A stretch of DNA of 64,000 nt from a bacterium (GCA_017431625.1 JAFRKQ010000021.1:77324-141323); one strand, 5' to 3'. Numbered from the stretch's first letter, positions 38,632 to 64,000 are shown. Notes: generated from the sequence alone by a model not told the origin. Numbers and translations: made by a program.

Positions 38632-38700
38632 AACCTTTCTCGTTTTGGCATAACTTAAATATCGACTCACCTAAAATCTGCATCAAGCGGATTTATTGTT

Positions 38701-38937
38701 ATGAGACGATATTATAACATACAAATTGATACAAATGTGACTAATTTCACTGATGGTGCCGATCTTTTGTGTCGCGAAATCAAGAAATTACACTCATGGG
38801 AGCGTATCAGTGTTATTAAAAATTTGCTCCAAAAAGGCTTAAGTCAAGCAAAAATTGCCAAGATTCTGGGAGTAAGTCCTCAATCAATCAGCCAACTGTT
38901 AAAACAAAATCCCACAAGAAAGGAAGACCATGAGTGA
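38701..38937 (+). CDS. Small HTH DNA-binding protein (Cro/excisionase-like candidate)
   Basis: C-terminal helix-turn-helix GLSQAKIAKILGVSPQSISQL. Confidence 0.5.
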   Translation: MRRYYNIQIDTNVTNFTDGADLLCREIKKLHSWERISVIKNLLQKGLSQAKIAKILGVSPQSISQLLKQNPTRKEDHE

Positions 38938-39238
38938 AGTCGTTTTGTCATTATTTTGACTTTAGTGTTTGTCAGCATCCTTTTTATCCTTTCTGGCGAA
39001 CCAAGTATAAAGTAGTTGTGAGTTTCACAGATGACTTTAAGGAATTAAAGCCATTCAATGAGACAAACGTAATAGTTCTTTGACATCGGGTGGCAAATGG
39101 CAAGCGGGGTTTTCGTTTTTTTCGCCCCGTTAGACATAATCATTAATAATTTCTAACTTTTTGCACCGCAGTTATGCTTTAGTTTGTCTTTGGCATCTTG
39201 TCAGCCAGTCGCCCGATGGTCCAAAGATAGGTGGACAT

Positions 39239-40129
39239 ATGAAAACAAGATTAATACAAACAGACTTTTGGAATGATGAGACCATCCAAGAATTGTCATT
39301 GGAAGCACAGCACTTGTATATTTTTCTTTTGACGTGTCCGCAAATAAATTTGTGTGGGATTTTCAAGCTATCTGCTCGACAAATTTCACTGATGTGCAAC
39401 CTAAACCGCGACCAGCTAGAAAAGGCAGTCAGTGAGCTGACAGCTATTAATAAAGTCCACTTCTTTGATGGCTTTGTATTTGTCGTCAATGCTTTAAGCA
39501 AGAACGGTTATCTGATTTCCAGCAAAACCACAAAGGCTTGCCTCAAGCAATTAGCCGAAATTCCAACTGAGGTGAAACAGCATTTTTCGCAAGTCTCAGG
39601 TAAAAATTTAGATAATCCACTGTCCGAACAGAAAGATAGTGTATCGCCAAAAGTAAAAAAAGAAGATACTGTATCGGTGGACTATCCATGTGCCATGGAT
39701 AGTACTAACATTAACAATAACAATAACATTAAAGAAAAAGGGGGTGTGGGGGAAAAGGAAGAACTAATTTTAGTAAATTTGCACCCAACTCTCGAAAGTG
39801 TTGGCGAAGTGGAAATCAACGAGATCGTCAAATTGTATCATGTGCGGCCGGATTTTGTCCGCTCCAAACTTGATGACCTTAAGCATTATTGCCGATCTAC
39901 CGGTAAACAATACGTTGAATACATGGAAGCATTGATGCGTTTTGTCAAAAATGATAAACATTTTGAGCAAAACGTCATTAAAGCTGATATACCGTCAGCG
40001 TATGTCAATTTGCCACCTAAAACTCCGGCAAGTCTTGAGCAGCAACAGGTCGCCAGGCAGGCTTTGCCGCCAGCACTGCGAGCGCGCATCGAGCGCAAAT
40101 ATCCATTGAGAGGGGAAAATGCAAACTAG
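39239..40129 (+). CDS. Putative phage replication initiator/organiser (winged-helix N-terminal domain)
   Basis: RBS GGTGG before ATG 39239. N-terminus …ELSLEAQHLYIFLLTCPQINLCGIFKLSARQIS… wHTH-like. Poly-Asn linker. Confidence 0.35.
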   Translation: MKTRLIQTDFWNDETIQELSLEAQHLYIFLLTCPQINLCGIFKLSARQISLMCNLNRDQLEKAVSELTAINKVHFFDGFVFVVNALSKNGYLISSKTTKACLKQLAEIPTEVKQHFSQVSGKNLDNPLSEQKDSVSPKVKKEDTVSVDYPCAMDSTNINNNNNIKEKGGVGEKEELILVNLHPTLESVGEVEINEIVKLYHVRPDFVRSKLDDLKHYCRSTGKQYVEYMEALMRFVKNDKHFEQNVIKADIPSAYVNLPPKTPASLEQQQVARQALPPALRARIERKYPLRGENAN

Positions 40130-40355
40130 ACTCATTGATACTCACGAGATGCTGCAACGCAAAAATATCGTCATGACAAAATTGCTAGAGTATATTTATG
40201 CGCGTCTGCAACAAGCCATTCGCGAATGTAAACAAGCACCTTTGGATAAAGATGGCCTGAAAGATACTCGCAAAGTCAATATAGCTGGCTTTTGTGTTCA
40301 ACTACTAAGCGATATTTCCCGAGAAAAAGAAAAAATTATCAAGAAAGGAAAATAA
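40119..40355 (+). CDS. Hypothetical phage protein (78 aa)
   Basis: Compact co-oriented ORF. 4-bp overlap with upstream gene. Confidence 0.4.
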   Translation: MQTRLIDTHEMLQRKNIVMTKLLEYIYARLQQAIRECKQAPLDKDGLKDTRKVNIAGFCVQLLSDISREKEKIIKKGK

Positions 40356-40753
40356 TGTCCAGATCTCGTTTCTATCCAACTAAAGTTACCAAAAAGGTTT
40401 TTGAGGCGATCAAATTAGATTTAACTTGTTACCACCCCTATAGCTACATCAAAAACAGATATAACATCGCCCGCGAGACATTGAGAATAATCAAGAGCTG
40501 TAATTCATATGAAATGTACAAAAAACATTACGCAGATAAACGTCATCGCCGTTTAGCTTTGAAAGTTTGCCTAACCAACGAAAATATTGCTGCCCTTGCG
40601 AGCGAGCAGCAAGTAATTCGTGACCGAATAGATATACAAGCCCTAATTGCTCGCCAAATGAGCGGCACGATCAACAAATTACGCTTGGCAGTTTTGTTGA
40701 CTGAGATTAGTGTAGCGATGATTCTTGTCGGATTGTTAATGAGAATGTATTGA
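40355..40753 (+). CDS. Hypothetical phage protein with C-terminal TM anchor
   Basis: RBS aaagg before ATG 40355. C-terminal hydrophobic helix. Confidence 0.4.
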   Translation: MSRSRFYPTKVTKKVFEAIKLDLTCYHPYSYIKNRYNIARETLRIIKSCNSYEMYKKHYADKRHRRLALKVCLTNENIAALASEQQVIRDRIDIQALIARQMSGTINKLRLAVLLTEISVAMILVGLLMRMY

Positions 40754-40773
40754 GTCAAAAAAGAAAGGTTAAA

Positions 40774-41010
40774 ATGTCCAGAAAAAATAATACTTCACTT
40801 GTACTCAAAGATGTACCTGTCATTGACGTGATTATCGTCAAAGGGCGAGTATTTCATTGGGTACAAAACAAATCTGACTGGAAGGTGCAAAAGCCCAAAG
40901 ACCATCAATTTATTGATAGTCTACTTAAAATGTTTGAGTCCGGTATCGATAAGTTGTCAGATTATTGTCGCCTGGCCCGCTCAAGCCGGTTGAAAGGCTT
41001 TTATGTTTAA
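40774..41010 (+). CDS. Hypothetical phage protein
   Basis: RBS aaagg + ATG 40774. Confidence 0.4.
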   Translation: MSRKNNTSLVLKDVPVIDVIIVKGRVFHWVQNKSDWKVQKPKDHQFIDSLLKMFESGIDKLSDYCRLARSSRLKGFYV

Positions 41011-41536
41011 GCGGTGGCGAGCGGCAAAACTATCAATCTGTCGGTTTCTTTTGTGCCAAATTGAACCTGATATTGATAAAATCATTGGTGAGTCAATTGG
41101 ACAGGCTATTGATGAAAAGATGAGCGAGTGGGAAATAGCTTTGCTATCGCTTCAAGCAGAGGTGGCTGAAGATTTTGACGGTGGACTCTTACACGGCGTG
41201 CCTAGCGTGGCAGCATTGCGTGAAAAAATCCGCAAAGAAACAAGGGCCTGGAAACTTGCCCAGCTGCGCGAAAACAAACTGTCAAGAATCATGAATGTGG
41301 ATCATCAAGGACAATTAGTCTCTCGCGCCCGAGGTTTGGTTAAAATTGACTCCACACGTGAGCGGGAGCGCGTGATTTTTGACAACGCTTTGCTTGAGGT
41401 CAAAAAGGCCAAAAACGCTTTTAACCAAGCGCTAGTGATTCTTTATGATTTGCAGCGCTCCTTTGACCTTGAGTACCGCGTGCACAACGTGTTGGATTTT
41501 GAAGAAGCAATCGAAAAGGAAAGTAGAAATGAATAA
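41003..41536 (+). CDS. Hypothetical phage protein (177 aa)
   Basis: Overlapping operon arrangement. Confidence 0.4.
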   Translation: MFKRWRAAKLSICRFLLCQIEPDIDKIIGESIGQAIDEKMSEWEIALLSLQAEVAEDFDGGLLHGVPSVAALREKIRKETRAWKLAQLRENKLSRIMNVDHQGQLVSRARGLVKIDSTRERERVIFDNALLEVKKAKNAFNQALVILYDLQRSFDLEYRVHNVLDFEEAIEKESRNE

Positions 41537-42079
41537 ATGTCAAGATATGATTTTTCCAGCGTACAAGGAGAGATTAGAGGTGGCGGCTATCAAGCTGGTC
41601 CGACGATTTTGCAAGTGGGCAAGTGGTCATTTGAAGAATCAAAATCGGGCAAGCCATATTTACTGATGGAGTGGAACAAAGAAGGGGTTATCCGAGACGA
41701 CGGGCGGCCGTTTACCTCATCCCGATTGTATTTTTCCTCCCCTAAGGCGATTCAAATCGCCCGCGGGAAGCTCCACGATCTTTGCGACATCCTCAATGTA
41801 GACTATGATGCTGATCTAATGACCGATGATGATTACATCATCAACTTTGGCGAAAAACTGCACGGTCGAAGTTTGAATGCCGAACTGGTGGAAACTGGCG
41901 GCAAAAGTGAGAAAGGGCTTCCGTTTTTAGGTGTCCGTTTGCGTGGACAAGATGGCCAAAAGGTAGATTTGTTTATAAAGGAAAAAGGTGATGCCAATTA
42001 TAGTTCGCCTCGACACAAACATCCAAGTCCCCGTATGGAAGACATGGACACGCAAGATAGCAGCGACATCCCATTTTAA
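41537..42079 (+). CDS. ssb: Single-stranded DNA-binding protein-like (divergent OB fold, acidic tail ending DIPF)
   Basis: C-terminus …MDTQDSSDIPF matches the SSB protein-interaction tip motif (D-I-P-F). Confidence 0.5.
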   Translation: MSRYDFSSVQGEIRGGGYQAGPTILQVGKWSFEESKSGKPYLLMEWNKEGVIRDDGRPFTSSRLYFSSPKAIQIARGKLHDLCDILNVDYDADLMTDDDYIINFGEKLHGRSLNAELVETGGKSEKGLPFLGVRLRGQDGQKVDLFIKEKGDANYSSPRHKHPSPRMEDMDTQDSSDIPF

Positions 42080-42102
42080 GGGCAAAAGCGAAGAAAGATG
42101 AA

Positions 42103-42423
42103 ATGCAAGTACAGCTAAATCTTGACACGGTCAGTTTGCAGGAGTTGTTAGCAGCGACAGCAGAAGGTTATCGCTCACGTATGAACACCTTATCTGCTTG
42201 TGTCGGGCGGATAAATGAGCTTTTGGCTCAAATTGAGAAAAAGTCTAACCTGGAAAATGATTTAAACGCCGCAAAAACGGCTCAAAAACAGATGGATGAG
42301 ACCCACAGCCAACTTGAAAAAGAAAACAGTAGGCTTTTTGAAGAAAATGCGGCACTTAAAACTGAAATTCAAAAACTCGAAGAACAATTGAATAAATCGA
42401 CGACAAGAGAGGAAATTTTATGA
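42103..42423 (+). CDS. Coiled-coil phage protein
   Basis: Heptad-rich sequence throughout. Confidence 0.4.
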   Translation: MQVQLNLDTVSLQELLAATAEGYRSRMNTLSACVGRINELLAQIEKKSNLENDLNAAKTAQKQMDETHSQLEKENSRLFEENAALKTEIQKLEEQLNKSTTREEIL

Positions 42424-42695
42424 TTACCGAACAGAAAAAACAGTTGTCAAGGGTAAACGACCACAAACCCACTATTCGCCAGTTGATGGCCAAACCACCG
42501 CTGTCAAAAGGAACAAAAATCCATGCTGAAGATATCTGCGTCACCTTCAAATACAAGCGCTATCGCCAGTTGCTTTACCTTAAGCGTGACAAGGCAGCTG
42601 AAGATCAAGAGCTGAGGATGCTTAATGAACTGAGAGTCTTTCGGCGCAACATTGAGTTGCCGTCATTTATAAGTGAGTACGGACTGGATAAATAA
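42420..42695 (+). CDS. Hypothetical phage protein (91 aa)
   Basis: Overlaps upstream stop. Confidence 0.35.
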   Translation: MITEQKKQLSRVNDHKPTIRQLMAKPPLSKGTKIHAEDICVTFKYKRYRQLLYLKRDKAAEDQELRMLNELRVFRRNIELPSFISEYGLDK

Positions 42696-42821: not shown

Positions 42822-43226
42822 ATGCCAAAAACAGCCAAACTAACCACCATCCCCAAACCACAAAAGCAAGCGATTGCTATTGCCATGAGAAGTGAAGGGG
42901 TGAGTTTACGCCAAATTGGCAAGACTCTAGGCGTTGACCACGTCACGGTGAAAAACTGGACCAGCAAAGAAGCAGTGGGTAATCGTCTGGCAATTGTGGC
43001 AGCATCTTATCAAGAGGAATTGGCCGAGCGTAACAAAGGACTTTTGGATTTGGCGCTCACGAGACTTGAGGAACTGATACCAAAATCTGAATCAATCAGT
43101 GAAGTGCTTAAAGCGGCTGAGTTTGCTCGGGGCAAACCAGAGCAACAAGCTGGTAATAATGTACAAGTGAATGTGACCGGGTTTGCACCAGCGGCCAAAA
43201 TAAAGGATCAATATGGGGAGTTTTAA
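42822..43226 (+). CDS. Terminase small subunit-like HTH protein
   Basis: HTH (GVSLRQIGKTLGVDHVTVKNW) and position directly upstream of, and overlapping, the large terminase. Start uncertain (track 42774 is TTG). Confidence 0.45.
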   Translation: MPKTAKLTTIPKPQKQAIAIAMRSEGVSLRQIGKTLGVDHVTVKNWTSKEAVGNRLAIVAASYQEELAERNKGLLDLALTRLEELIPKSESISEVLKAAEFARGKPEQQAGNNVQVNVTGFAPAAKIKDQYGEF

Positions 43227-44001
43227 CTACCAGAAGTTCTGTGCCGATCACCTGACTGTCATCAACAAACAGGCAGAGCGTGTTCCGTTTGTCTTGAATG
43301 GCGTCCAGGAGAGATTCCTTCGTGAGCGAGGACGCCTCAACCTGATTCTAAAAGCACGTCAACAAGGATTTTCGACGCTCTTGGTCGCTATGGCTGTAAT
43401 CCGTTTCCTTTTTCAAGAAAACTTCTACGCCATGATTATTGCTAACGATGCCGACAATGCCATTGGTCTGCTTGACCGAGCCAAGTTTTTTCTCAAGTCA
43501 GCGGAAGAATCGTACGGAGCAAAGGTACCCCTTAAATACAATTCACGTTATGAACTGCACAATAGCGAAAATAACGCTACAATCTTGATTGGCACGGCGC
43601 AAAATGTAGACGTAGGCCGATCAAAAACAATTCACTTCCTCCACGCTAGCGAGGCAGCGTTTTTCCGTGACCTTGATCGGATCTTATCATCAGCCTTGCA
43701 AGCCGTTCCAGAAACTGGTGAAGTTTACCTGGAGTCTACGGCTAATGGTTTTAATGAATACAAAAAGCTCTGGGACGCAGCAGTATTGAAGGAAAATAAT
43801 TTTACACCGTTGTTTTTCCCGGCGTCAGCCTTTTATGAGTCTGAATATTTGGAAATTAAGAAAAAAGAGCTAGGACGGTATTTTCCTCAAGAATATCCAG
43901 AGACGTCAGAGGAAGCATTTTTAACCAGTGGCGACACGTATTTTGACAAGGAAGCACTTGAGTATTATTTGAAAAATGTAAAGGAGGTTCAACATGATTA
44001 G
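43213..44001 (+). CDS. Terminase large subunit, ATPase domain only
   Basis: …KARQQGFSTLLVAMAV… (Walker A-like), …IHFLHASEAAF… (Walker B), …QEYPETSEEAFLTSGDTYF. Ends where the nuclease domain normally begins. Confidence 0.7.
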   Translation: MGSFNYQKFCADHLTVINKQAERVPFVLNGVQERFLRERGRLNLILKARQQGFSTLLVAMAVIRFLFQENFYAMIIANDADNAIGLLDRAKFFLKSAEESYGAKVPLKYNSRYELHNSENNATILIGTAQNVDVGRSKTIHFLHASEAAFFRDLDRILSSALQAVPETGEVYLESTANGFNEYKKLWDAAVLKENNFTPLFFPASAFYESEYLEIKKKELGRYFPQEYPETSEEAFLTSGDTYFDKEALEYYLKNVKEVQHD

Positions 44002-44097
44002 CAATAACATACATTTACACCTAGGAAATACCTGGGAAGTTCCTAGGTACTGCTTGTAGCTAAGTTCATATAAAAATTTGTAAACATGAAAGGAGAT

Positions 44098-44325
44098 ATG
44101 TCACAAACGCTTAGAGAACTGATAAACAAAACTAATCTCAACCGCATTAACCTGCATGTAGTGGCGTACGATGGTGCTGAAGGGTTTATTACTGACTACC
44201 CGTCAGCGGAGGCTTTGGAGGCGGAACGCCTTGACCACTTCGTGGAGGTGACGGCTGACCACAGTATGAAAGACAGCAAACCTGTCGTTAAAGTGAAATT
44301 ATTAAAAAATAGGAAGGAAAAATGA
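44098..44325 (+). CDS. Hypothetical protein inside the terminase-interrupting segment
   Basis: RBS aaaggag + ATG 44098. Confidence 0.4.
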   Translation: MSQTLRELINKTNLNRINLHVVAYDGAEGFITDYPSAEALEAERLDHFVEVTADHSMKDSKPVVKVKLLKNRKEK

Positions 44326-44419
44326 ACAAATTTGAAAATTTTACAGAAAGCGAAATTAGAAGCTATGATCTTGACGGGAATCTTATCAAGAGATTTTATG
44401 AAAAATAAGAAAGGGGAAA

Positions 44420-44818
44420 ATGAAATACTTTATATCAATGCCGATGAATGGAGTGCCAGACGACATAATAAATACTGTCATGCGAGAAGTTCGAGATTAC
44501 ATAAGTCAAAGAACTGGCGGAGAGTGGATCAATAACATCATTTCTAGCGATTTACAACACCCGCTAGAATATCTTGGCGAATCTATTAGGCGTATGGCGC
44601 AAGCAGACGCTGTATTCTTCGTATCAATTGATTCAAGAGAGTTACAGTATAGATGGATAGACAGAAGAGGTTGTAATGTTGAATTTGTTGCCGCTAAAGA
44701 GTATGGGATAGATTGCTTTTATTTACGTGCAATTGAAAAACCAAATAACTCATATGAAATAGTACAAGAAACAGGTAATGTAAGAGCTCACCATGAAAGA
44801 ATTAGTTGGGATATGTGA
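44420..44818 (+). CDS. DUF4406 / nucleoside 2-deoxyribosyltransferase-like protein (tentative)
   Basis: RBS aagggg + ATG. MKYFISMPMNG… and …QADAVFFVS…NVEFVAAKEYGIDCFYL pattern. Confidence 0.35.
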   Translation: MKYFISMPMNGVPDDIINTVMREVRDYISQRTGGEWINNIISSDLQHPLEYLGESIRRMAQADAVFFVSIDSRELQYRWIDRRGCNVEFVAAKEYGIDCFYLRAIEKPNNSYEIVQETGNVRAHHERISWDM

Positions 44819-44832: not shown

Positions 44833-45480
44833 ATGAGCAACCAATTCCGACAATACCGAGATTTTCAAAAGGGAGAGTTTATTCTGGCGTTTGCTGACAC
44901 TGCGGTCGGTGGTCACGATTACTGTGCTTGTCAATTCCTCTCGCAAGATCAATTAGACGTCCCACTGGTTTTTCACTCACAAGTTTCAGCGACCTTAATG
45001 ACGCCTGCTTTACATCTAAAACTTGAAGAAATCTATGACATTACTGGCGTGCAGCCCTGTATTGCCTATGAACGTAATAACGGTGGGCAATTTGAGCTGG
45101 AGCGACTAAGCGTCCTAAATAAAAACCAGAAATATTATATTTATGAACAGCGTGACAAAGATGGTCAACCGAATGGCAAGCTTGGGTGGGATACCAATGC
45201 AGCCACGCGACCAAAAATGCTCCAAGAGCTGCAAGAGTGTATCAACGCCAAACTCATTACACTTTATGACGAGCCGACAGTCAATGAGTTATTTTCGTTT
45301 ATAATCTCAAAGTCTGGTAAACCAGAAGCAGAAAAGTCAGCTCATGACGATCTAGTCATGTCACTGGCTGGCGTGTGGCAGTTGTACCAAAGTGAAAGCA
45401 AGCCTCAAAAGATAGATTACACTCAGTTTTCGCGAAGTTTGCCAGACCAACAGCTGTTTTCAAGAAATGGGTTGTTTTAA
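44833..45480 (+). CDS. Terminase large subunit, RNaseH-like nuclease domain only
   Basis: …FILAFADTAVGGHDYCA…AHDDLVMSLAGVW… typical terminase nuclease motifs. Own RBS gaaagg + ATG. Confidence 0.65.
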   Translation: MSNQFRQYRDFQKGEFILAFADTAVGGHDYCACQFLSQDQLDVPLVFHSQVSATLMTPALHLKLEEIYDITGVQPCIAYERNNGGQFELERLSVLNKNQKYYIYEQRDKDGQPNGKLGWDTNAATRPKMLQELQECINAKLITLYDEPTVNELFSFIISKSGKPEAEKSAHDDLVMSLAGVWQLYQSESKPQKIDYTQFSRSLPDQQLFSRNGLF

Positions 45481-45786
45481 TTCGTTTTTATTTTTAGATC
45501 TAATCAAGCAGATTATGTTTATAAGATGCATGATGCCGATGATAACACAAAAACCGATATTGCCATTATAAAGACTAGCTGCCAATCCTAAAATAAAAAA
45601 CAAAATAAACAGCGGCACGAATCCAGTTATAAAAAAAGAGCCAATTCCAATGACACTCATAATAAAACCCCAAAAGTGATAGTTGTATACCAGTTCTATG
45701 AAAGTGAAAACCATAGTAATATTTGTTAAGTATATTGACGTACGATAATATTTGTTTACATTATTTTTTGACATTTGTTCTTTCAT
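45460..45786 (-). CDS. Small 3-TM membrane protein encoded antisense to the structural module (moron candidate)
   Basis: Only minus-strand ORF between terminase and structural genes. Three hydrophobic helices. Confidence 0.45.
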   Translation of the reverse strand: MKEQMSKNNVNKYYRTSIYLTNITMVFTFIELVYNYHFWGFIMSVIGIGSFFITGFVPLFILFFILGLAASLYNGNIGFCVIIGIMHLINIICLIRSKNKNELKQPIS

Positions 45787-45992: not shown

Positions 45993-46640
45993 ATGCTGAT
46001 GACCGTTGATGATATCCAAAAACAAATCCACGTAATGTATGAAGGTGACGTGGATGCACCTGCCAATACTAGCGATGAAGATTATCAGATCCGCTTGCGC
46101 CTGATTAACCAAGCCATTGCCGAGTGGGAAGCAGTCCCCAATGTCTTATGGCGAGAATTGGTTAAAGTGATTGTCACAACCTGCCAGACTGATGAGGAGA
46201 ATATGAGTTTAGATTTGCCGGCGGATTTTGCCAAGATGTACTCAGGTTACATCACCATTGCGGATCAAAAAATCCAGGAAGTGCCTATAGAGTATGTGAC
46301 GGCAAAAATCGGTGAAGATTCAATCGAGCCTTTCTTTTATGTCACTGGCAATTCTGCCCAAGGTTATAAGGCGAATTTTATCAACCTGGATGCGTGCGAG
46401 GGTGCAATTATCAGCTATAGCTATATCAAGCAGGCAGAAGCCATGAACACCCCAACTGATGTCCCAGAGCTTTCAGATCCCACCTATATCATTCACCGGG
46501 TAGTAGCTGAACTTTTTGCGCAAGATTCAGATCCTAAATCTACCCGTGAGCTGTCGATCTCTCAGTCGCTTTTAGAGCAGATGATTGTCCGCAATAGCCT
46601 CACCTCTATCGATGGCGAGAACACTTATGAAAGGAGTTAG
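45993..46640 (+). CDS. Hypothetical phage structural protein (215 aa)
   Basis: First gene after promoter copy 1. Confidence 0.45.
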   Translation: MLMTVDDIQKQIHVMYEGDVDAPANTSDEDYQIRLRLINQAIAEWEAVPNVLWRELVKVIVTTCQTDEENMSLDLPADFAKMYSGYITIADQKIQEVPIEYVTAKIGEDSIEPFFYVTGNSAQGYKANFINLDACEGAIISYSYIKQAEAMNTPTDVPELSDPTYIIHRVVAELFAQDSDPKSTRELSISQSLLEQMIVRNSLTSIDGENTYERS

Positions 46641-46642
46641 TC

Positions 46643-52020: not shown

Positions 52021-52022
52021 TA

Positions 52023-54370: not shown

Positions 54371-54395
54371 CAATGTTTATTGGTTTGTGCTTTTG

Positions 54396-54466: not shown

Positions 54467-54468
54467 AT

Positions 54469-54542: not shown

Positions 54543-54565
54543 ATTATTGTATCATCATTTCGATG

Positions 54566-54637
54566 TTGCGGAGGCTGGACTTGAACCAGCGTTTTGCCCT
54601 TATGAGAGGCCTGCGATACCGCCTCGCTCACTCCGCA
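54566..54637 (-). tRNA. tRNA with CAT anticodon (elongator Met or Ile-lysidine type; not initiator-like)
   Basis: Acceptor TGCGGAG/CTCCGCA, anticodon loop CTCATAA, T-arm GCTGG-TTCAAGT-CCAGC. D-arm one nt short. Lacks the 3 GC pairs of initiator. Confidence 0.65.
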
Positions 54638-54670
54638 AACGTTTATTATATCATTACTTCACAATAATCA

Positions 54671-55117: not shown

Positions 55118-56103
55118 GATAGTAACTCCTTGAGGCGAGCTACTAATAGTTCCCAAAGCGCCCCGCCATTGGTTTTTTTGAGACTATCCACTCGCGCTTG
55201 TAGCGCGTCAATAGTTTTATTTTTTTCTTCAGTTAGTTTGACTTTTTGGTCCAGCTCTTGCTCTAGGTCTTTAATTTCTACTCCCTGCACGTCCAGTAGT
55301 TCGTGTAGTCGATCCCATTCAGCCTGAGTGTGATAAACAGTCATACCCTGCATTTGGGTTTTGAGTTGTTGCACTTGCGCCTGTAAACTGTCTATCGTTT
55401 TGTTTTTCTCGCTGATCGTCTGATCAAAGACGTCAACCTGTTTTTGTAGCTCTGCTATCTGTGTTTCCAATTTTTTGCTCTTGGCTCGCTCATCACCCAA
55501 ATGACCGTGATTAACCGTTTCTGGGTCACCATATGCGCATCTACCTTCTTTTTCGCCCAAATACTCAAAAAGAAGGGGCTTGAGCGTCTCCCAACTGTTT
55601 ACCTCAGATTTATTAAACCATGACCAATCAATCATCTTATCCTCGATTTCTGTCTTACTTCCATAATTAGTGATTCTAATATTCGCTTGATTTTTAGGCC
55701 TTAAAACGCCGTAGACGTATTTATAGGCGTAGTCTTTGAGTACACATGCACTCTCACTGGGATCGTTTTGCGAGAAGCACTGGAACTTCGAGATGGTTGC
55801 CGTGGCGTAGGATTCAATCGCCACATGGCCGTATTTGCCGTAGTTGGCTGTCCAAATCCACACATCCCCTGGTTGAGGGACAAAATCTGGTGTATTAACA
55901 ATCCGCTCAAAATTGTTATACAGATTCGGATCAGTGAGATAATTTGTCCATAAGTCTTTTGCGCCAGTCACACCTTTTGGCTGGTTGATTCCTAAAACCT
56001 CTTTGCAGTAGAAACGAAACAGATCTACACACTGTGCGCCATATGCGCCGTCATAGTCAATCTTTTTACCTTGGTATTTAGCGATAAAGTCTGTAAAGTG
56101 CAT
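55114..56103 (-). CDS. Endolysin with N-terminal CHAP domain and C-terminal coiled-coil region
   Basis: …YDGAYGAQCVDLFRFYCKEVLG… (Cys) and …YGHVAIES… (His). Confidence 0.75.
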   Translation of the reverse strand: MHFTDFIAKYQGKKIDYDGAYGAQCVDLFRFYCKEVLGINQPKGVTGAKDLWTNYLTDPNLYNNFERIVNTPDFVPQPGDVWIWTANYGKYGHVAIESYATATISKFQCFSQNDPSESACVLKDYAYKYVYGVLRPKNQANIRITNYGSKTEIEDKMIDWSWFNKSEVNSWETLKPLLFEYLGEKEGRCAYGDPETVNHGHLGDERAKSKKLETQIAELQKQVDVFDQTISEKNKTIDSLQAQVQQLKTQMQGMTVYHTQAEWDRLHELLDVQGVEIKDLEQELDQKVKLTEEKNKTIDALQARVDSLKKTNGGALWELLVARLKELLS

Positions 56104-56113
56104 GATATCCTTT

Positions 56114-57346
56114 CTAGCGATCTAAAAGTAGTAAAAGCGCTGGTCCATAACCATCACTTAAAGCCGTTTGCGTGGCCATGATGTAGCGCACGCGAATATA
56201 TGGAGGTTCCCAAGAAGTTTCACCAGCGGACATGCTCGCTGCTTGCCAAGTCATATTTACAGTGGAAATATTGGTAATGGTATGAGAGTGGTTTTGTGAG
56301 GCTTTTAGTGTACCACCATATGCTCCATGACCACCTTGATTTGTATTGGTCGTCACGCTACCGCCATGGTTATGTGATTGCGAGTGCGTATGTGAATTGC
56401 CGCTTTCATGAGTATGCTTTACTTTGCCACCCGTGCCGCTTGTTTGACTATTGCGAACATAAAAGCCACTAAGTTTTGGCGTACCATTAGTGCCATCACA
56501 TGTAATCCAGCCAGTAGGATTGCTCGAAGATGTAGTGATCGCAATATCTCCAACCGCAACATTAGTTTGACTTGCGGCCTTGTAAAGACCCAAATTGGTA
56601 TAAGTCGGTAAATTAGTTTCACTGGGACTAGTACCAGTGAAAGTATCGCCAGTCAAACTCTGACTGAAACTAAAAGTATGAGTGTGTTGGCCAATGACTG
56701 AGCCACCATCGGCTTGACGTCTATCAGTATCTGTAGACTCACCGGTAGTGCCGGAATGAGTATGAGAAACAGCGGTGTGAGTATGAGTTACAGAGTGGGA
56801 ATGAGTGTTGCTCCCGCCAGTACCCCCAGCATTGCCACCAGCAACCGCCCCTTTGAGAAAACGGTTTTGTGAGGCCGAATGAAAACTCAAGCCCGAGCGC
56901 GCACTCGAGCGATAGACCAAACTCTCGGCAGGAATTTGGCTGTCGGTATCGGCTTTGATAAATATTACTTCATAATATGGCGGCAAAGCAGTAGTGCTGG
57001 CATAATCTACTTTGTCAGATAAAGCATTACCAGAAAAACTTGCATTTGACACTTGTGCTTTGTGACGATGTCCTTCTGACACTGTAGATTTTGGATCATC
57101 ATTGCTCGAGTATCCTTGCTCACCATTGGCGGAGCTTGTATATTCATCGCTCGAATGTACATGAGAATTTGGTTGATGAGTGTGAGTGCTACCCGTGTGC
57201 GAGTGAGCGCTGCTTCCACCGGTTTGCCCAAGTGTACCTGAAATAGCCGACGGAAAACGCCCATCAAAACGAGTATCACGGCTCCAGCCAGCAGGAATAG
57301 CTGTATTATTGCCATCAAATGGTAAAATAACACCAGCAGGAATCAT
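56114..57346 (-). CDS. Tail collar/fibre-like protein with three His-rich HSHTGSTHTH-type repeats
   Basis: Gly/Ser/Thr/His-rich 410 aa. Repeats AHSHTGSTHTHQPNSHVH, NTHSHSVTHTHTAVSHTHSG, KHTHESGNSHTHSQSHNHGG. Confidence 0.45.
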   Translation of the reverse strand: MIPAGVILPFDGNNTAIPAGWSRDTRFDGRFPSAISGTLGQTGGSSAHSHTGSTHTHQPNSHVHSSDEYTSSANGEQGYSSNDDPKSTVSEGHRHKAQVSNASFSGNALSDKVDYASTTALPPYYEVIFIKADTDSQIPAESLVYRSSARSGLSFHSASQNRFLKGAVAGGNAGGTGGSNTHSHSVTHTHTAVSHTHSGTTGESTDTDRRQADGGSVIGQHTHTFSFSQSLTGDTFTGTSPSETNLPTYTNLGLYKAASQTNVAVGDIAITTSSSNPTGWITCDGTNGTPKLSGFYVRNSQTSGTGGKVKHTHESGNSHTHSQSHNHGGSVTTNTNQGGHGAYGGTLKASQNHSHTITNISTVNMTWQAASMSAGETSWEPPYIRVRYIMATQTALSDGYGPALLLLLDR

Positions 57347-57579
57347 TAGGGGATCTCCACAATGCGAAATACTTCATATTGATCTCGTGCAACCAACTCT
57401 CGCGCCTGGGTCAACGCAGTTTGTTCACTCGAAGCTGTAACACTAACGTCAGTAGAATCGGTGTAAACCGGCAAACCCTGTTGATTGGTCTTTTTGTCAT
57501 TGTAAGCAACCACATGATACTCAAACTTTTTATTTGTCAACATCCCTTGAGCATAAGTTTTAATTTCTGAGTCTGACAT
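57346..57579 (-). CDS. Small phage protein (77 aa)
   Basis: RBS aaggag before ATG. Confidence 0.4.
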   Translation of the reverse strand: MSDSEIKTYAQGMLTNKKFEYHVVAYNDKKTNQQGLPVYTDSTDVSVTASSEQTALTQARELVARDQYEVFRIVEIP

Positions 57580-57590
57580 ACGATCTCCTT

Positions 57591-57911
57591 TTAGAGTACG
57601 AAGCCTTTAATAGTTTCACCTTCATTTATAAAGACAATTAAATTAGTGGCGTTGGCCGTAGTAATGACTGTTCCATTAACAGTCGCCCCTGAAAAACTCG
57701 GTGTTGCGCCTGAGGTTGAGATTTTAAGCCGCAAAAGTAGGACCTGTCCTGTGGGTAAATTAGCAGGCGACAAATTAAAAGTCGTGTTGGCAGATATTGT
57801 CGCACTCAAGCGATTACCAGATTTAATGCTAACCGTCGCGGTGTTGTTGGCAACCTCAACGGTTTTGAAATTAGTGTCAAATGCTTGTGGGGTTATATAT
57901 GATTTCGCCAT
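57591..57911 (-). CDS. Small phage structural protein (106 aa, beta-rich)
   Basis: Start corrected to MAKSYITPQ (RBS gagggg). Confidence 0.4.
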   Translation of the reverse strand: MAKSYITPQAFDTNFKTVEVANNTATVSIKSGNRLSATISANTTFNLSPANLPTGQVLLLRLKISTSGATPSFSGATVNGTVITTANATNLIVFINEGETIKGFVL

Positions 57912-57960
57912 AATAGCCCCTCTTATAGTTGTTTTAACCCTTTTGTCAAGCGCGAATGGC

Positions 57961-57988
57961 TTGACAAAATCGCTCAAATAACTATAAA
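57961..57988 (+). promoter_or_regulatory. Phage promoter-like element copy 3 (TTGACA-16-TATAAA)
   Basis: ggcTTGACAaaatcgctcaaATAACTATAAa. Sits in the divergent region between the lysis/fibre minus block and the head module. Confidence 0.55.
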
Positions 57989-58014
57989 AGGCCCTGTAAA
58001 ACAGAAAGGCAACA

Positions 58015-58236
58015 ATGGCTAATCAAACCAACGATTCCAAAAATAAACGCACACAAGAGATGGCAAACAAACAAGCATCACCAGCTCCTCAAACTCCAGC
58101 CAAACAACCAAAACATATGTGTGTCGTTTGTGCCGCCAAAAAGGGCCTTTCCTTGAAAAAGGGTCATTATAGCGAGGTCTTATGTGAGTTTTGTGGTGAG
58201 CGTCACACGGGAGGATTAGAGACAGATTTTGAGTAA
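58015..58236 (+). CDS. Small zinc-ribbon protein (CxxC…CxxC)
   Basis: CVVCAAKKG…CEFCGERH. RBS gaaagg. Confidence 0.4.
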   Translation: MANQTNDSKNKRTQEMANKQASPAPQTPAKQPKHMCVVCAAKKGLSLKKGHYSEVLCEFCGERHTGGLETDFE

Positions 58237-58241: not shown

Positions 58242-60131
58242 ATGAGTGAGACTAAAAAATCATCGGTATCAGTGCAGACGCTCAAAGAAAACTTTGAGGT
58301 GTCACGTCAGGCATTTAGTGTATACAAAGGCAAGCTTTCAGAGCGCGAGCGCTATCTTTACGGTAAGCCAATGGAGCGCACAGCTCAAGAAACCGCGGAC
58401 AACAAGCCTAATGTCAATGATCCTCGGCTTTTTAGTCAAACGTTTGAACGCTCCATTCGGGTTATGTCCCAGCTGGCCACTGGCAAATTCAAGGGAGTCT
58501 CGAGTGACGATATGGGCAAAAATTTACTCATGAACTTAATCCTTGACCGTTATGTCATTCCTAATGCCAACTCTCAGTATGATTTCTTAACCAAACTACG
58601 CCTAATCGACTGGTACTCACTCGCTTATGGCTGTATGGTGGCGCTCGTGGACTGGATTGTAACACCAAACTATATTGGGCCAGAGTTGTTTTTAATTCCC
58701 ATCCGTAATGTCTATCCGCAACCTGGTGTCAGTTTCCATGACATGTCTTGGTGCCAGATTGTAACAGATGTGGACAAATCTTTCATTCAAGCTAAAAAAG
58801 ATCAAGACGGTTGGCAGAATATTCCAGAGTTTTTGGATCTAGTACAAGACTCCAGCGGTGATAGTTTGGCAGATAAACCGCCAGATGAAATGTCGCTTAA
58901 CGATAATGAAGCTGGCGGCCTAGCCCAAAACTCAAAGAAATTTCCGCGTTTCCGTCTAATTACCGAATACAGACGCGATCGTTGGATTACATACGCTCCC
59001 AACCAAAATCTGGTTCTGCGAGACATTCCCAACCCCCACGAAAATGACAAATTGCCACTTGTTGCTAAATATTGTTTCCCGCAAATAGATTCCACTTTTG
59101 GTTTGTCTGAGGTGGAAATTTCCAGCTCGATGGCCGACGTGGTCAATTCACTGTACAATCTGGCGATTGAAGATGCTCACATGCAACTATTTCCACCTAT
59201 GGCTATTGACCCAACCTCAGTTGCGCCTTGGACAATTAAATTCAGACCCGGTGAACGCTGGATGCTCAACAACCGCCAAGCGCGCGTGCCTGAACTTTTG
59301 CCCACTTCCAATCGTGGAGCAACCTCAGCCTTGGAAATGCGACAAATGGCGATTGGGTCACTTCAGACTTTGGCTGGGACTTCTGACACCACGGTCAAGC
59401 AAGGTGAGGAAGCATCAATGGGTAAAACCCCACAGGCGCTTAAAATGCAAGAGGCTAGGCAGTCAACCCGCGATGAATTTGACCGTTTTTGCATGGAACA
59501 GTTTATATCCGAAGTTTATTCGCGCTTTGCCAATTTAATTGTCAAAAAAATGCCCAAGGAGATTGCCTTGAGACTTTTTGAAACAGAAATTGAGCAATTG
59601 ACCCAATACTATCCGGACATTAGAGAATTGGTTGAACAAACAAACCATCTCTCCAACACTAGTGGCACTAAAATTCCGGCGAAGTTTTTCCAAAATTATA
59701 TTTTTGACTACGAAATTACGCCTGGTAGTACCTACAAAATTGACCAACAAACTCAGGCTAGTAATCTACAATTTATCCTCGAGATGGCGCAAAATCCGAC
59801 CATTAAAGAGGCCTTGGAAGCCTCGGGCAAACGTTTGGATATTGCTGAGACTATCAATAGACTGCTGATTAACTCCGGTATTCAAGACTCAGACAAAATC
59901 CTCATTGATATTCCTCAAGAAACAGCGCAAATGCCAGCCACACCAGAAGCAAGCCAACTGATTGGTGACCAAACCCAACTGTCAATGCCACAACCACAAC
60001 CCGAAGAGATGCCGCAACAAATGCCGGCGGCATATCCAATTCCCACGCAACCGGAAAACACTCAAGGTCCTGATCCACAAATTGAAGCCATGCGTCAAGC
60101 AATAAATCAACGAGCAGGAGTAGTATCATGA
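58242..60131 (+). CDS. Putative portal (head-tail connector) protein with Gln/Pro-rich C-terminal extension
   Basis: 629 aa, directly upstream of scaffold-like and capsid-like genes. No diagnostic motif. Confidence 0.4.
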   Translation: MSETKKSSVSVQTLKENFEVSRQAFSVYKGKLSERERYLYGKPMERTAQETADNKPNVNDPRLFSQTFERSIRVMSQLATGKFKGVSSDDMGKNLLMNLILDRYVIPNANSQYDFLTKLRLIDWYSLAYGCMVALVDWIVTPNYIGPELFLIPIRNVYPQPGVSFHDMSWCQIVTDVDKSFIQAKKDQDGWQNIPEFLDLVQDSSGDSLADKPPDEMSLNDNEAGGLAQNSKKFPRFRLITEYRRDRWITYAPNQNLVLRDIPNPHENDKLPLVAKYCFPQIDSTFGLSEVEISSSMADVVNSLYNLAIEDAHMQLFPPMAIDPTSVAPWTIKFRPGERWMLNNRQARVPELLPTSNRGATSALEMRQMAIGSLQTLAGTSDTTVKQGEEASMGKTPQALKMQEARQSTRDEFDRFCMEQFISEVYSRFANLIVKKMPKEIALRLFETEIEQLTQYYPDIRELVEQTNHLSNTSGTKIPAKFFQNYIFDYEITPGSTYKIDQQTQASNLQFILEMAQNPTIKEALEASGKRLDIAETINRLLINSGIQDSDKILIDIPQETAQMPATPEASQLIGDQTQLSMPQPQPEEMPQQMPAAYPIPTQPENTQGPDPQIEAMRQAINQRAGVVS

Positions 60132-60466
60132 CCAACGCGATCGTCCCAGATTTTGCAGTGGCGGCAAAAATCAAAACCGAAAGGCGGCAGCGCCTTGAAG
60201 CCGCTCTAATTGCTAGTAAGGATGGACCCACCAAGACGGACCAAGAAATTGCCAAGCTCGCACTCACGCCTGGTTGGGAACATATCGAAGACTTTATCAG
60301 CGAGCAGATTGAGGGCTTACACTCAATGGTGGGCCAAGCAATAAGCAGTGGTGCCAGTTTCCAAGAAATCGGCGAGCGAGCCACACTGGCTCAACTAGCC
60401 GGAGAAGAACTGCAAACGATAATTGATTTCGTCAAAGAAAGGGCCAAAAGTGTCGGACAAACTTGA
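60128..60466 (+). CDS. Hypothetical head-module protein
   Basis: Overlapping start/stop with portal-like gene. Confidence 0.35.
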   Translation: MTNAIVPDFAVAAKIKTERRQRLEAALIASKDGPTKTDQEIAKLALTPGWEHIEDFISEQIEGLHSMVGQAISSGASFQEIGERATLAQLAGEELQTIIDFVKERAKSVGQT

Positions 60467-60716
60467 ACAGCTACCAGATTACAAGGATGAACAAGCAGCA
60501 CTTGGCCAAGAAGGCATCAAAATCCCGCCTCTAAAAGAGCTGGAGAATCGGGTCAATGCTGATCCCAAACATCATCAGTGGCGACAAAAGGGGCCATATT
60601 TAGTTTGTAGTGCATGTAAGTCTCGACACGCCGTATATTTGGGTCTTGACAAAGTACTTAAAACAACTAAAAACAATGGTGAGATCGTTCTTGAAGCAAT
60701 AACGCCCCAGGAATAA
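60451..60716 (+). CDS. Small protein with CxxC zinc-binding motif (GTG start inferred)
   Basis: RBS aagaaaggg 8 nt upstream of GTG. …CSACKSRH… No ATG in frame. Confidence 0.3.
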
Positions 60717-60781
60717 TCTTGAAAACTTGGTGGCTCACGGCCAAGATGCAGTAAGCGTGGAGTAACAACAGAAAGGCGACA

Positions 60782-61717
60782 ATGGCAGAAAACGCTGAAA
60801 ATGTCCAGAATCTGGACCAAGACGGAGTAACTGGAGTCACGCCCCAGACAGATGACGGAAACGCACCGAGTGAGGAAACTCAAGCAGTGCAGCCAGAAGA
60901 AAGCGGCGACAAACCTCTTGAGGAAATGTCTCTTGAGGAATTGGAAGCCAAAATCCAAACTGGCGACGCGGAGCAGAAGGCAGACGGTGATAGGCAACAA
61001 ACAGATTCAAGCCAAACACCAGAAAAACCAACTACTCCACCGGCTCTTTTACAGCCAGATTCACCTGAAACCTCGCATAAGGCTCAATCGCGATGGCAGC
61101 AGTTGGCTAATTCCAATCGGGCAAAAGACGAAGAAATTGCAGCTCTGAGAGCACAAATTCAGTCTTTACAGACCAGGAATCTTAATATTCCCGCACCTCC
61201 GTGGGAAACTGATCCGACTGCAAGCGCAAAACCATTACCTTTACCAGAAGTGAAACCGGGAATGGAAATCACGCCTGAGATTTACAATCAGCACGTCCAA
61301 GCACAAGCTCAAGCAATTGCTCAGGGGCATATCCAAGCGGCCAAACTCCAAATGGAAGCGCAAGCAGCTAGGCAAGAACAAGCTCGCAGCCTTAACGAAG
61401 CTGTCAGCTATATCCGCCAAGCCTATCCAGAGCTTGATCCGAACTCACGGCAATACTCAAGAGAATTGGACGAAAAAGTGGGCACTTTGATTGAAGGGAC
61501 AATCAACAACAACCCGGCAGCACTGCGCAAGCAAGTGGACGCGATCATGGGGATGCGTGCCGCAACACTTAATACCGAAAGACAGCATCAGGAAATTAGT
61601 AAACAAGCAGCGCAATCTGCTTTAATTCCTGGATCGAGTATTGAGGAAAAGCCAATTGATTACAACGCATTAACGCTTGAGCAAATTGAAAAGATGGCGG
61701 GGACTGACGGCGAATAA
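60782..61717 (+). CDS. Scaffolding-like protein (acidic, coiled-coil, Gln/Ala-rich)
   Basis: Composition and position immediately before capsid-like gene. Conserved RBS acagaaaggcgacaATG. Confidence 0.45.
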   Translation: MAENAENVQNLDQDGVTGVTPQTDDGNAPSEETQAVQPEESGDKPLEEMSLEELEAKIQTGDAEQKADGDRQQTDSSQTPEKPTTPPALLQPDSPETSHKAQSRWQQLANSNRAKDEEIAALRAQIQSLQTRNLNIPAPPWETDPTASAKPLPLPEVKPGMEITPEIYNQHVQAQAQAIAQGHIQAAKLQMEAQAARQEQARSLNEAVSYIRQAYPELDPNSRQYSRELDEKVGTLIEGTINNNPAALRKQVDAIMGMRAATLNTERQHQEISKQAAQSALIPGSSIEEKPIDYNALTLEQIEKMAGTDGE

Positions 61718-61777
61718 TCTGGATGTGAAAAAGCCATTAGTAACTAGATACAGAGTAAATCTGTAGAAAGGATAAAA

Positions 61778-62716
61778 ATGGCAGTACAAACAACTGGAAC
61801 GCAAGCTATTAGCTCGCTGATGACCACTTACTATGATAAGCGTTTTTTGAAGCGACCGAATACGGACTTTGTTTTCCGTGATCAAGCAACTTTGCGCAAA
61901 ACGGTCAAGCTCAATGCTGGCAAAGTGGTGCAATTTGCCCGTTACACACCGCTGAGCGCGGCTACTACTCCGCTCACCGAGGGGTCGAGTGGCTCAGGCA
62001 CGAGCTTGGCTAGCGATAGCGTGACTGTCACCGCAAAAGAATATGGCAATTGGGTGGAAGTTTCCAATCTCCTTTATCTCACTTCAATCGACTCCAACTT
62101 TGCCGAAGCGGTGGATGTGGTGCGCGAGAACATGCACTTGACTCTGGATATGATCGCCAGAGATGAGCTTAAAGCTAATCTCCACGCCGAGTCACTGGGC
62201 GAAGCTTTGAGTGTGGCAGCCATCAAGGAGCTTAATCGCTATTTGAAGACTAAGGGCGCTTACAAGATGAGTGATGGCTATTATCACCTGATTGTTGGCC
62301 CCAATGCTGAGTTCGCACTCAAGAATGATCAAGATTGGATCAAGGCCAATGGTGTCGCTAACTCTAATGTCCAACACTTCAAAGACGGAGTGATTGGTCT
62401 TATTGATGGTGTCAAGGTGATTTACTCTTCCACCATGGAAGAGGGTGACGGTACTGGCCAAACTCCGACTTATCACTCGATCCTTTTGGGTGGTCATGCC
62501 TTTGGCGATGTGGATTGGGAGAAAGATCGTCCGCACTTGGTGTTTGACGGCCGCAACATCACCGCCGGTAAAGAATTTGTCCCAGGCAGTGGTGACAAAT
62601 CTGATCCGCTTAATCGCAAGCACACCCTTGGTTGGGCGGCTACGGCTGCTCCTAAGGTGCTTAATGCTAACTGGGGTATCTGCATCACCTCCACTCCTTA
62701 TACTTCCGGATCCTAA
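61778..62716 (+). CDS. Putative major capsid protein
   Basis: 312 aa after the scaffold-like gene. Strong RBS agaaagg. Followed by a stem-loop. Confidence 0.45.
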   Translation: MAVQTTGTQAISSLMTTYYDKRFLKRPNTDFVFRDQATLRKTVKLNAGKVVQFARYTPLSAATTPLTEGSSGSGTSLASDSVTVTAKEYGNWVEVSNLLYLTSIDSNFAEAVDVVRENMHLTLDMIARDELKANLHAESLGEALSVAAIKELNRYLKTKGAYKMSDGYYHLIVGPNAEFALKNDQDWIKANGVANSNVQHFKDGVIGLIDGVKVIYSSTMEEGDGTGQTPTYHSILLGGHAFGDVDWEKDRPHLVFDGRNITAGKEFVPGSGDKSDPLNRKHTLGWAATAAPKVLNANWGICITSTPYTSGS

Positions 62717-62731
62717 TTCGTACCTTTACAT

Positions 62732-62755
62732 CTGGCCCAAGGGAACTTGGGCCAG
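62732..62755 (+). terminator. 10-bp perfect stem with GGAA (GNRA) tetraloop just after the capsid-like gene; no U-tract
   Basis: CTGGCCCAAG-GGAA-CTTGGGCCAG. Confidence 0.35.
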
Positions 62756-62792
62756 AGAATAAAGGCAGGAATAAAGATAAAGAAAGGTAAAA

Positions 62793-63986
62793 ATGGCAAC
62801 ACTTTATACGGATTTGGTCAAGAGAGCCCAATCTGGAGCTAACAGCAATAGTAGTTACTCTCCATATCGAGATCAGATGGATAATGGTAGGCGTGATGGT
62901 TCGACTCAATATGCGCCGTCTTCACAATATACTCCAACTGCTTCAAGTACACAATCAAGACCACAAGCGAGTACTTCTTCGAGCAATCAAGCGCCATCTT
63001 TTGATGTTAAAAACCGCGATGCTAACCCTGGCGATGGGTACTTTTGGGATGCCGCCGACGGCTGGAAACAAATTAGCCAAAACGTCAGCAATGATTATGA
63101 CGCCCAACTTGAAGCCGCACGCAAAGCCGAAGAGGAACGACAGGCTCGACTACGCGCTGAGATTAACAATGGTTGGGATCAAGTGGACTCGAGACTTAAT
63201 AGCATTGCTGATCGCATCCCCACCCAACGCGATGAGCAAACAGAATCAATTGGCAATATGTATGATACTTCCGCCGGCAAGCTCAACACTGCCAGAGATT
63301 ATGCCAATTCACAAATTGATGCTAACCAAAAAACCACTCTCAATGATCTTTCTGATCGTCTGCGAGCAGCTTTGCAAGCAGGCAATACTTATTTGGGTGC
63401 GCGCGGCTCATCTGATTCATCGGCCAATGATCGCTACTCCACGGCTTTACTCAAGCAGGCCAACAAACAACAAGGTAACGTGATGATGCAGGCTGACAGT
63501 CAACGTTCATCAGTGCAAAACACTTATGACAACAACATGGCTCAACTTGACGAGTGGAAAAACACCAAAACCTATGAAGTAGGTCAGTGGTATAACGAAG
63601 CACTCAACAACATTGATCGCGAACGCGCTAATGCCAGTGGTGAGCGCGCCCAAGCTCTAGCTCAACTAGAAGCTAATTTGCACCAGCAGGCGTTGACGAG
63701 ACTGGCACAAATCGAAGACGCGGCCAACAGTTGGAAAAATTCTGTCAATGCCTGGTTGCTTGAACAACAAGGCAATACCAGTAATGGTGTGAATCTGCTT
63801 AATGCGACGCCACAAGCTCTCTCTTATGAAAACTTTGGCAATCTGCAAATGGGCAACCAAATCACGACACCAATCTTGGGAGCAAACTACAACGCCACAA
63901 ATGACGATGATAAAGCCGGTACCTCCAGCCTTTACTTTAACTACAACGCCGCCAATCCTGTCACCAATACTAAAATGACGTATTAA
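62793..63986 (+). CDS. Phage structural protein, Gln/Asn/Ser-rich (397 aa)
   Basis: Conserved RBS agaaaggtaaaaATG. Follows the capsid-like gene. Confidence 0.4.
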   Translation: MATLYTDLVKRAQSGANSNSSYSPYRDQMDNGRRDGSTQYAPSSQYTPTASSTQSRPQASTSSSNQAPSFDVKNRDANPGDGYFWDAADGWKQISQNVSNDYDAQLEAARKAEEERQARLRAEINNGWDQVDSRLNSIADRIPTQRDEQTESIGNMYDTSAGKLNTARDYANSQIDANQKTTLNDLSDRLRAALQAGNTYLGARGSSDSSANDRYSTALLKQANKQQGNVMMQADSQRSSVQNTYDNNMAQLDEWKNTKTYEVGQWYNEALNNIDRERANASGERAQALAQLEANLHQQALTRLAQIEDAANSWKNSVNAWLLEQQGNTSNGVNLLNATPQALSYENFGNLQMGNQITTPILGANYNATNDDDKAGTSSLYFNYNAANPVTNTKMTY

Positions 63987-64000
63987 AGAAAGGGAAGATG

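Follow-up and report, generated by a model that had tools for sequence, protein, structure and literature searches.

In enterobacterial prophages and islands of the P4, P22 and CP4-57 type, a tyrosine integrase acts at the 3′ end of a tRNA or transfer-messenger RNA (tmRNA) gene, and its gene, int, lies beside the intact tRNA. In pSAM2-type elements of actinomycetes, int sits directly upstream of the core that corresponds to the tRNA 3′ end, in the same orientation, and ends up away from the intact tRNA. Metagenomes have already yielded temperate phages and prophages of bacteria of the candidate phyla radiation (CPR), Microgenomatia among them (bioRxiv 10.1101/2025.02.25.640227; PMC12455944). 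Here, we describe a prophage in a 64,000-nt stretch of a bacterial metagenome-assembled genome (MAG; GCA_017431625.1, JAFRKQ010000021.1:77324-141323), hereafter the window. The phage is physically inserted at the 3′ end of a host tRNA-Ser(UGA) gene and the junction is real; the phage gene next to the tRNA encodes a helix-turn-helix (HTH) protein where the original prediction, a reading of the sequence alone, had expected an integrase.

Three features make up the junction.

38546–38631, plus strand: intact tRNA-Ser(UGA) with encoded CCA, the presumed attL (ARAGORN; Rfam tRNA, 56.6 bits; sequence read)
38632–38700, plus strand: 69-bp spacer ahead of the first phage gene, with a terminator-like hairpin at 38674–38694
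38701–38937, plus strand: 78-aa HTH protein, first gene of the early operon (Pfam HTH_38, E = 1.3e-7; HTH_23, E = 1.2e-6)

Read directly from the sequence, the acceptor and T stems of the tRNA-Ser are perfect. Its 3′ end reads ...GGTTCGAGTCCCACTGCTTCCGCCA and abuts phage DNA, as expected at the attL of a tRNA-integrated prophage, and a promoter-like TTAGCA-18-TATAAT lies upstream at 38500–38529. Left of the tRNA, the genes are chromosomal, encoding DnaE, DnaX, Fpg, GatA, GatB, RND efflux, a FemX-like protein and a histidine kinase, and both a strand switch and a change in GC skew fall at the tRNA. The original prediction was thus right about the tRNA, about phage genes starting within 70 bp of it and about the HTH protein that adjoins it. 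Its statement that housekeeping genes run up to the tRNA needs amending: the closest 11 kb hold accessory genes (polysaccharide synthesis, GT8, Cthe_2159, DUF4956, VTC, MATCAP and SLFN_AlbA_2).

Exact-protein look-ups retrieved the junction from four independent ENA metagenome assemblies of different samples, made with two pipelines (L003, L006, L008 and L099). In all four, the host SLFN gene, the tRNA-Ser, the HTH gene and the replication gene are joined at 99.9–100% identity; the spacer is 100% identical, and the interval from 38.5 to 38.7 kb has zero differences from the window. The element is 99.8–100% identical between samples. We take the contig name of L003, k141_530875, to imply assembly with a k-mer of 141, which exceeds the 86-nt tRNA, so a repeat-driven misjoin at the tRNA-Ser is not credible. 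The contigs retrieved by protein look-up showed neither the HTH gene in another context, nor a circular form of the phage, nor an empty site; in particular, the MATCAP look-up returned five contigs, none with an empty tRNA-Ser site, and the VTC look-up found no record. L003 and L099 both stop at nearly the same points, near window positions 34910 and 39490. Beside the prophage, L006 (ERZ28654653) lacks 557 bp (window 35697–36253) that cover part of the host MATCAP gene and sequence upstream of it; the ends of the missing segment overlap by about 10 bp. This is a strain-level deletion polymorphism.

The statement that no recombinase is visible up to the window end was confirmed by two kinds of search, and also holds for a further 2.9 kb. 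A Pfam scan (E ≤ 0.01) covered 84 stop-to-stop open reading frames (ORFs) of at least 70 aa in 38632–64000 and a 961-aa ORF that continues past the window; its matches are listed for the best 25 of 44 families by member count, single-member matches outside that list being weaker than about 1.4e-3. No integrase, resolvase, large serine recombinase or transposase family is among the matches listed. The 78-aa HTH protein has a weak match to a resolvase HTH (HTH_7, E = 1.3e-4), which covers a generic HTH only, without a catalytic domain. A profile built from integrases of the phage's own family, together with six unfiltered single-sequence searches, gave a best E of 0.056 against all ORFs of 40 aa or more in the 64-kb window.

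Attachment-site searches gave a similar picture. A repeat of the tRNA-Ser 3′ end, proposed as a check on the integration, is not present within the 64-kb window (25-mer, up to 3 mismatches), and 12-mers common to 38546–38720 and the rest of the window are at chance level (1 found, 1.25 expected). Relatives of the phage contain no tRNA-Ser-like segment. Among viral contigs in IMG/VR, the 25-mer occurs only in L005 (IMGVR_UViG_3300005253_000186), an unrelated 84-kb phage. At least nine tRNA genes are clustered in 10 kb of this contig (1055–10565), all four tRNA-Ser isoacceptors among them.

Beyond the window, the sequence can be followed a short way. Exact-protein look-ups past the window end gave only ENA fragments of up to 8 kb, of which L001 is 99.94% identical to 59007–64000 and reaches 2881 bp farther. 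It extends a giant ORF of more than 961 aa whose start codon lies at the window end, and both retrieved ENA contigs that reach this gene, L001 and L002, terminate inside it. A full-length copy of the giant protein is absent from 5.8 billion proteins; together with the contig breaks, this suggests a hypervariable or repeated stretch. A scan with the giant protein gave no match in GTDB genomes and only an unrelated weak match in JGI metagenomes. The neighbouring 397-aa virion protein has no IMG/VR match, and a phage collection held no DNA match to this phage.

Relatives of the phage indicate where its integrase might be. The ATPase half of its large terminase matches at least 139 IMG/VR contigs, and the 80 loci kept are 47–54% identical; the relatives' genomes measure 33–39 kb. 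About a dozen of them carry tyrosine integrases, which are intact in L014, L020, L050, L068, L080, L032 and L061; judged by gene content, the family includes temperate members. Two layouts occur. In L011, L020, L050 and L080, the integrase points toward the terminase and the early genes are divergent, and in L032 and L061 the integrase is divergent from a co-directional series of HTH gene, early genes and terminase. A small HTH gene adjoins the integrase in all relatives seen, and the position of the 78-aa HTH gene matches that of the gene adjoining the integrase in L011, L032 and L061.

One relative, L061, is visibly integrated. Its order is host RsfS (Pfam, E = 2e-23) and LigT (E = 2.5e-29), a 59-nt tmRNA- or tRNA-like 3′ fragment, a 361-aa integrase, the small HTH gene divergent from it, early genes, split terminase and portal. 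The 59-nt fragment is on the integrase strand and reads away from the prophage (cmscan, E = 1e-4), and ARAGORN finds no complete tRNA or tmRNA in this contig. Because this partial copy adjoins the integrase beside host genes, the integrase of L061, which reads into the attachment core, is placed at the end with the partial copy, opposite the intact RNA gene. The expectation of an integrase beside the tRNA therefore follows a common pattern that is not a rule, since the sole integrated relative found has the opposite layout. In L032, we read a degenerate T-arm-like fragment about 180 bp past the integrase stop codon, in the same orientation. L068 has, directly next to a complete tRNA-Tyr and 1.8 kb away from its integrase, a fragment resembling a tRNA 3′ end (5746–5855), with T arm, acceptor strand and CCA, which may be an attachment-site scar.

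By analogy with L061, the best-supported reading, and in our judgement a fairly probable one, is that a tyrosine integrase lies at the far end of the prophage, beyond the window. An integrase at the far end was among the explanations originally offered. The integrase gene would share the orientation of the tRNA-like core of attP and read into it. Crossover inside the core would then leave the rebuilt, intact tRNA and the early operon, with the HTH and replication genes, at attL, and would carry the integrase to the opposite end, beside a partial copy of the tRNA-Ser 3′ end (attR). The genome sizes of the relatives suggest an attR about 5–10 kb past position 64000. With the integrase at the attR end, its absence beside the tRNA would be a matter of element layout, not an anomaly.

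Several observations weigh against a far-end integrase. The early genes are co-directional with the tRNA here, opposite to L061, and the far-end cassette would have to follow the giant late gene instead of adjoining the HTH gene as in every relative seen; gene-block order varies widely in the family, but the rearrangement needed is undocumented. Neither an attR nor an integrase of this element is present in the window, nor an integrase in the 2.9 kb beyond it, and a search of 5.8 billion proteins with a six-integrase family profile returned none attributable to this MAG among the best 120 of 725 matches. No attP or attB junction was recovered, all four assemblies (4/4) containing the integrated form. 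Integrase decay also occurs in the family: in L010–L013 and L042 the gene is broken into ORFs of 202 and 119 aa about 300 bp apart (2159–3420 in L010, L011 and L013; 7921–9182 in L042; contigs of 19–36.5 kb), by either decay or an interrupting insertion.

That decay gives substance to an unlikely alternative, a grounded prophage: a tyrosine integrase would have carried out the integration, its gene would later have suffered deletion or inactivation, and the element would no longer be able to excise itself. Neither an integrase nor a remnant was found in 64 kb by the profile search or among the Pfam matches listed, the four assemblies hold integrated junctions only, and the HTH gene, which the integrase adjoins in relatives, lies 69 bp from the tRNA, as an integrase deletion would leave it. 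Such a deletion between tRNA and HTH gene must, however, have been exact, with intact tRNA and hairpin and no scar, while the visible phage genes are all intact, the samples agree at 99.8–100% identity and the far end lies outside the available sequence. General decay of the element, also put forward originally, is unsupported in the visible 25 kb. A different mechanism of integration, the third explanation put forward originally, or of maintenance is in our judgement quite improbable; the far end could encode a serine recombinase or transposase, the host could provide a Xer-type recombinase, or another element could supply an integrase. The one point in its favour is the lack of a tyrosine integrase in the window and among the database matches listed, but relatives encode tyrosine integrases, insertion exactly at a tRNA 3′ end is the signature of these enzymes, no serine recombinase or DDE family is among the Pfam matches listed, and the 78-aa product of the first gene, despite its HTH_7 match, lacks a catalytic domain. 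An element without any recombinase would be either an intact and inducible CPR podovirus that moves in and out of a tRNA gene with the recombinase of its host or of another element, or a fixed, domesticated prophage, which would be kept for its toxin–antitoxin pair, tRNAs or lysis genes in a genome of about 1 Mb; we consider this very improbable.

Two further alternatives concern the boundary itself. Because the phage has three tRNAs of its own (Gln, Trp and Met), the tRNA-Ser could also belong to it, with the true boundary elsewhere, and L005 does have a tRNA-Ser(UGA) whose last 28 nt are identical. Yet that tRNA agrees at only 59 of 87 alignment columns (about 68%), the genes to the left (SLFN_AlbA_2, MATCAP, VTC and polysaccharide synthesis) lack phage character, the strand switch and change in GC skew coincide with the tRNA, and the tRNA, preceded by a promoter-like site of its own, is read towards the phage DNA as an intact gene at an attL would be, making phage ownership highly improbable. 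The suggestion that phage genes running to the end would indicate a chimeric assembly, in which host and phage contigs were misjoined through a shared tRNA-like repeat, is contradicted by the junction, which is 100% identical in four independent assemblies from different samples and two pipelines. Phage genes do continue to the window end, and the full-length giant protein is absent from the protein database, NCBI proteins included, so the source contig may end inside the phage; even so, the k-mer implied by the k141 contig name is longer than the 86-nt tRNA and no contig has the HTH gene elsewhere, and a chimera is scarcely believable.

The host, judged from its sequences, is a very divergent Microgenomates-group (CPR/Patescibacteria) bacterium. 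A search of 1.84 billion representatives matched the window's DnaE at 69% identity to one partial protein, labelled ‘Microgenomates group bacterium’, and at about 43% to all others, which points to a poorly sampled CPR/Patescibacteria lineage. The exact full 86-nt tRNA-Ser had no match in 185,579 GTDB species genomes. The capsid protein of a relative is recorded in a Candidatus Woesebacteria MAG; one of the L010–L013 records sits in such a MAG, GCA_029573715.1. The capsid and portal proteins of the element described here are NCBI MBQ6450012.1 and MBQ6450008.1 (locus tag IJJ08_03875), respectively, encoded on a 151,132-bp contig. Sample names of the form XIEF21-1_SAMN158299xx presumably denote a ruminant gut dataset.

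Downstream of the HTH gene, the prophage contains the following features.

39236–40129, plus strand: replication initiator or helicase loader with a DnaD-like N-terminal domain (PHROGs 3171, 1701 and 6251, E = 3e-10 to 1e-8)
40119–42695, plus strand: seven small early ORFs with no Pfam or PHROG match
42822–43226, plus strand: probable small terminase subunit with an HTH (HTH_38/HTH_23, E of about 4e-4), directly upstream of the large terminase
43213–44001, plus strand: ATPase half of the large terminase, as its own ORF (phrog_2, E = 3e-13; 47–54% identical to the 80 listed IMG/VR loci)
44086–44818, plus strand: two-gene cassette between the terminase halves, a 79-aa ORF and a 132-aa nucleoside 2-deoxyribosyltransferase-like ORF (phrog_355, E = 3.7e-5)
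44833–45480, plus strand: nuclease half of the large terminase, as its own ORF (phrog_24361, E = 2e-13; 42–61% identical to relatives)
45460–45786, minus strand: very hydrophobic 108-aa protein (from its translation), against the late-gene direction
45993–46640, plus strand: head-to-tail adaptor, SU10-like (Pfam SU10_adaptor, E = 5.7e-5, 24.1 bits, below the 27-bit cut-off)
46643–48646, plus strand: 667-aa tail nozzle-like protein, a role assigned from size and position
48618–52020, plus strand: three tail-fibre or virion proteins (tail-fibre PHROGs, E to 1.5e-14; Phage_fiber_2, E = 4e-21)
53450–54370, plus strand: SocA/Panacea antitoxin-like gene (SocA_Panacea, E = 4e-20; phrog_1281, E = 2e-43) and a 151-aa partner without a Pfam match
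54395–54637, minus strand: phage tRNA-Gln(UUG), tRNA-Trp(CCA) and tRNA-Met(CAU) (ARAGORN, Rfam)
54671–57977, minus strand: leftward block of holin, CHAP endolysin, 410-aa His/Gly-rich tail protein and two small ORFs
58242–60131, plus strand: portal protein (33–36% identical to ORFs of 613–675 aa in the portal position of relatives)
60782–61717, plus strand: scaffolding protein (Phage_scaffold, E = 1.2e-4; match to relatives by position and weakly by sequence)
61778–62716, plus strand: major capsid protein of the N4-gp56 family (phrog_1357, E = 2.6e-41; NCBI name for MBQ6450012.1)
62793–63986, plus strand: 397-aa virion protein, counterpart of the 423-aa ORF before the giant protein in L011 (26%, E = 1e-15)
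63998–64000, plus strand: start codon of the giant ORF (more than 961 aa), which leaves the window and is extended by L001

The virion, packaging and lysis set is complete and consists of long, uninterrupted ORFs; we found no truncated, frameshifted or otherwise broken gene in the visible 25 kb. The element is a podovirus-like temperate phage of which 38632–64000 is the left 25 kb, and this visible part looks intact. Its early module has the DnaD-like initiator alone (52% identical to an ORF in L050), without a DNA polymerase, which would fit a temperate phage that uses host replication. The 108-aa hydrophobic gene, in the lowest-GC kilobase of the window (0.368), looks like a moron, that is, an added accessory gene, and possibly acts in superinfection exclusion. 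The Panacea gene and the 151-aa ORF are probably a phage-borne toxin–antitoxin pair with an undescribed toxin, and the tRNA cluster lies between this pair and the holin gene. For the SLFN gene, the Panacea pair and the small ORFs, PADLOC produced no notable defence-system match. The leftward block is supported by Phage_holin_4_1 (E = 2.7e-30), CHAP (3.9e-8), endolysin PHROGs (to 5e-26) and tail phrog_5795 (6e-22). In the giant ORF, a DnaJ J-domain covers residues 373–420 and a Zeta-toxin-like kinase domain residues 582–673 (L001:4992–7874).

Homologous portal, capsid and split terminase genes, together with synteny and identities of 33–54% to members in IMG/VR and metagenomes, place the phage in a large family with a two-piece large terminase and an N4-gp56-type capsid. 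The terminase halves are separate ORFs in 82 of the 83 loci that hold both, so the split is a family trait and not a sign of decay; we know of no other phage family whose large terminase is consistently in two pieces. In the relatives (L010–L097), the halves mostly overlap slightly in different frames, with gaps of up to about 1 kb, and the 830-bp cassette here is at the long end of the observed range. Rfam finds neither an intron nor any other RNA in this gap at E ≤ 1. Compared with L011, the ATPase half is 52% and the nuclease half 42% identical; the adaptor is 30% identical to an ORF in L017, and the nozzle-like protein is 46.6% identical over 661 aa to the 655-aa ORF that follows that adaptor. 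One relative's portal-position ORF has a faint SU10_portal match. Capsid identity to relatives is 33–39%, and because none exceeds 39% the phage represents a distinct lineage. The order of structural blocks also varies: here, terminase and portal are separated by the tail and lysis genes (window 45993–58236), which follow the giant protein in L011 and L017, and the giant protein follows the terminase in L020 and L050.

A tRNA-adjacent prophage with its integrase at the other end is a known arrangement, and the integration question is in itself of small import. The value of the locus is a clean host–virus link: the host–tRNA–phage junction, which reproduces across samples, ties a widespread, uncharacterized family of podoviruses with split terminases and N4-gp56 capsids to a Microgenomates-group CPR bacterium, presumably of the ruminant gut.

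Among named isolates in the collection of phages searched, the closest by capsid are the Bacillus megaterium podophages Page, Pony and Palmer and the Paenibacillus phage API480 (23–24% identity, E = 1e-15 to 1e-9), which have genomes of about 40 kb and are very distant, with no portal match and no DNA match. Enterobacterial prophages and islands of the P4, P22 and CP4-57 type differ from this prophage in that no integrase was found beside the intact tRNA here. The layout that we propose for this element would resemble that of pSAM2-type elements, although those are plasmid-like elements of Actinobacteria and not tailed phages. The closest kinship is with the CPR split-terminase podovirus family (L010–L013, L014, L017 and the other members among the at least 139 IMG/VR contigs), with which the phage shares the terminase ATPase (47–54%) and nuclease (42–61%) halves, portal (33–36%), capsid (33–39%), nozzle (47%) and a giant virion protein in an equivalent position, and from which it differs in gene-block order and in the 830-bp cassette between the terminase halves. 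In L061 (IMGVR_UViG_3300022818_000042), unlike here, the integrase is visible beside the HTH gene and a partial tmRNA-like copy, the target is tmRNA-like instead of tRNA-Ser, and the early and late genes run oppositely relative to the RNA gene. The two elements nevertheless share their terminase halves (51% and 49%), their portal (35%), the order of small HTH gene, early genes and terminase, and insertion in the 3′ end of a small-RNA gene.

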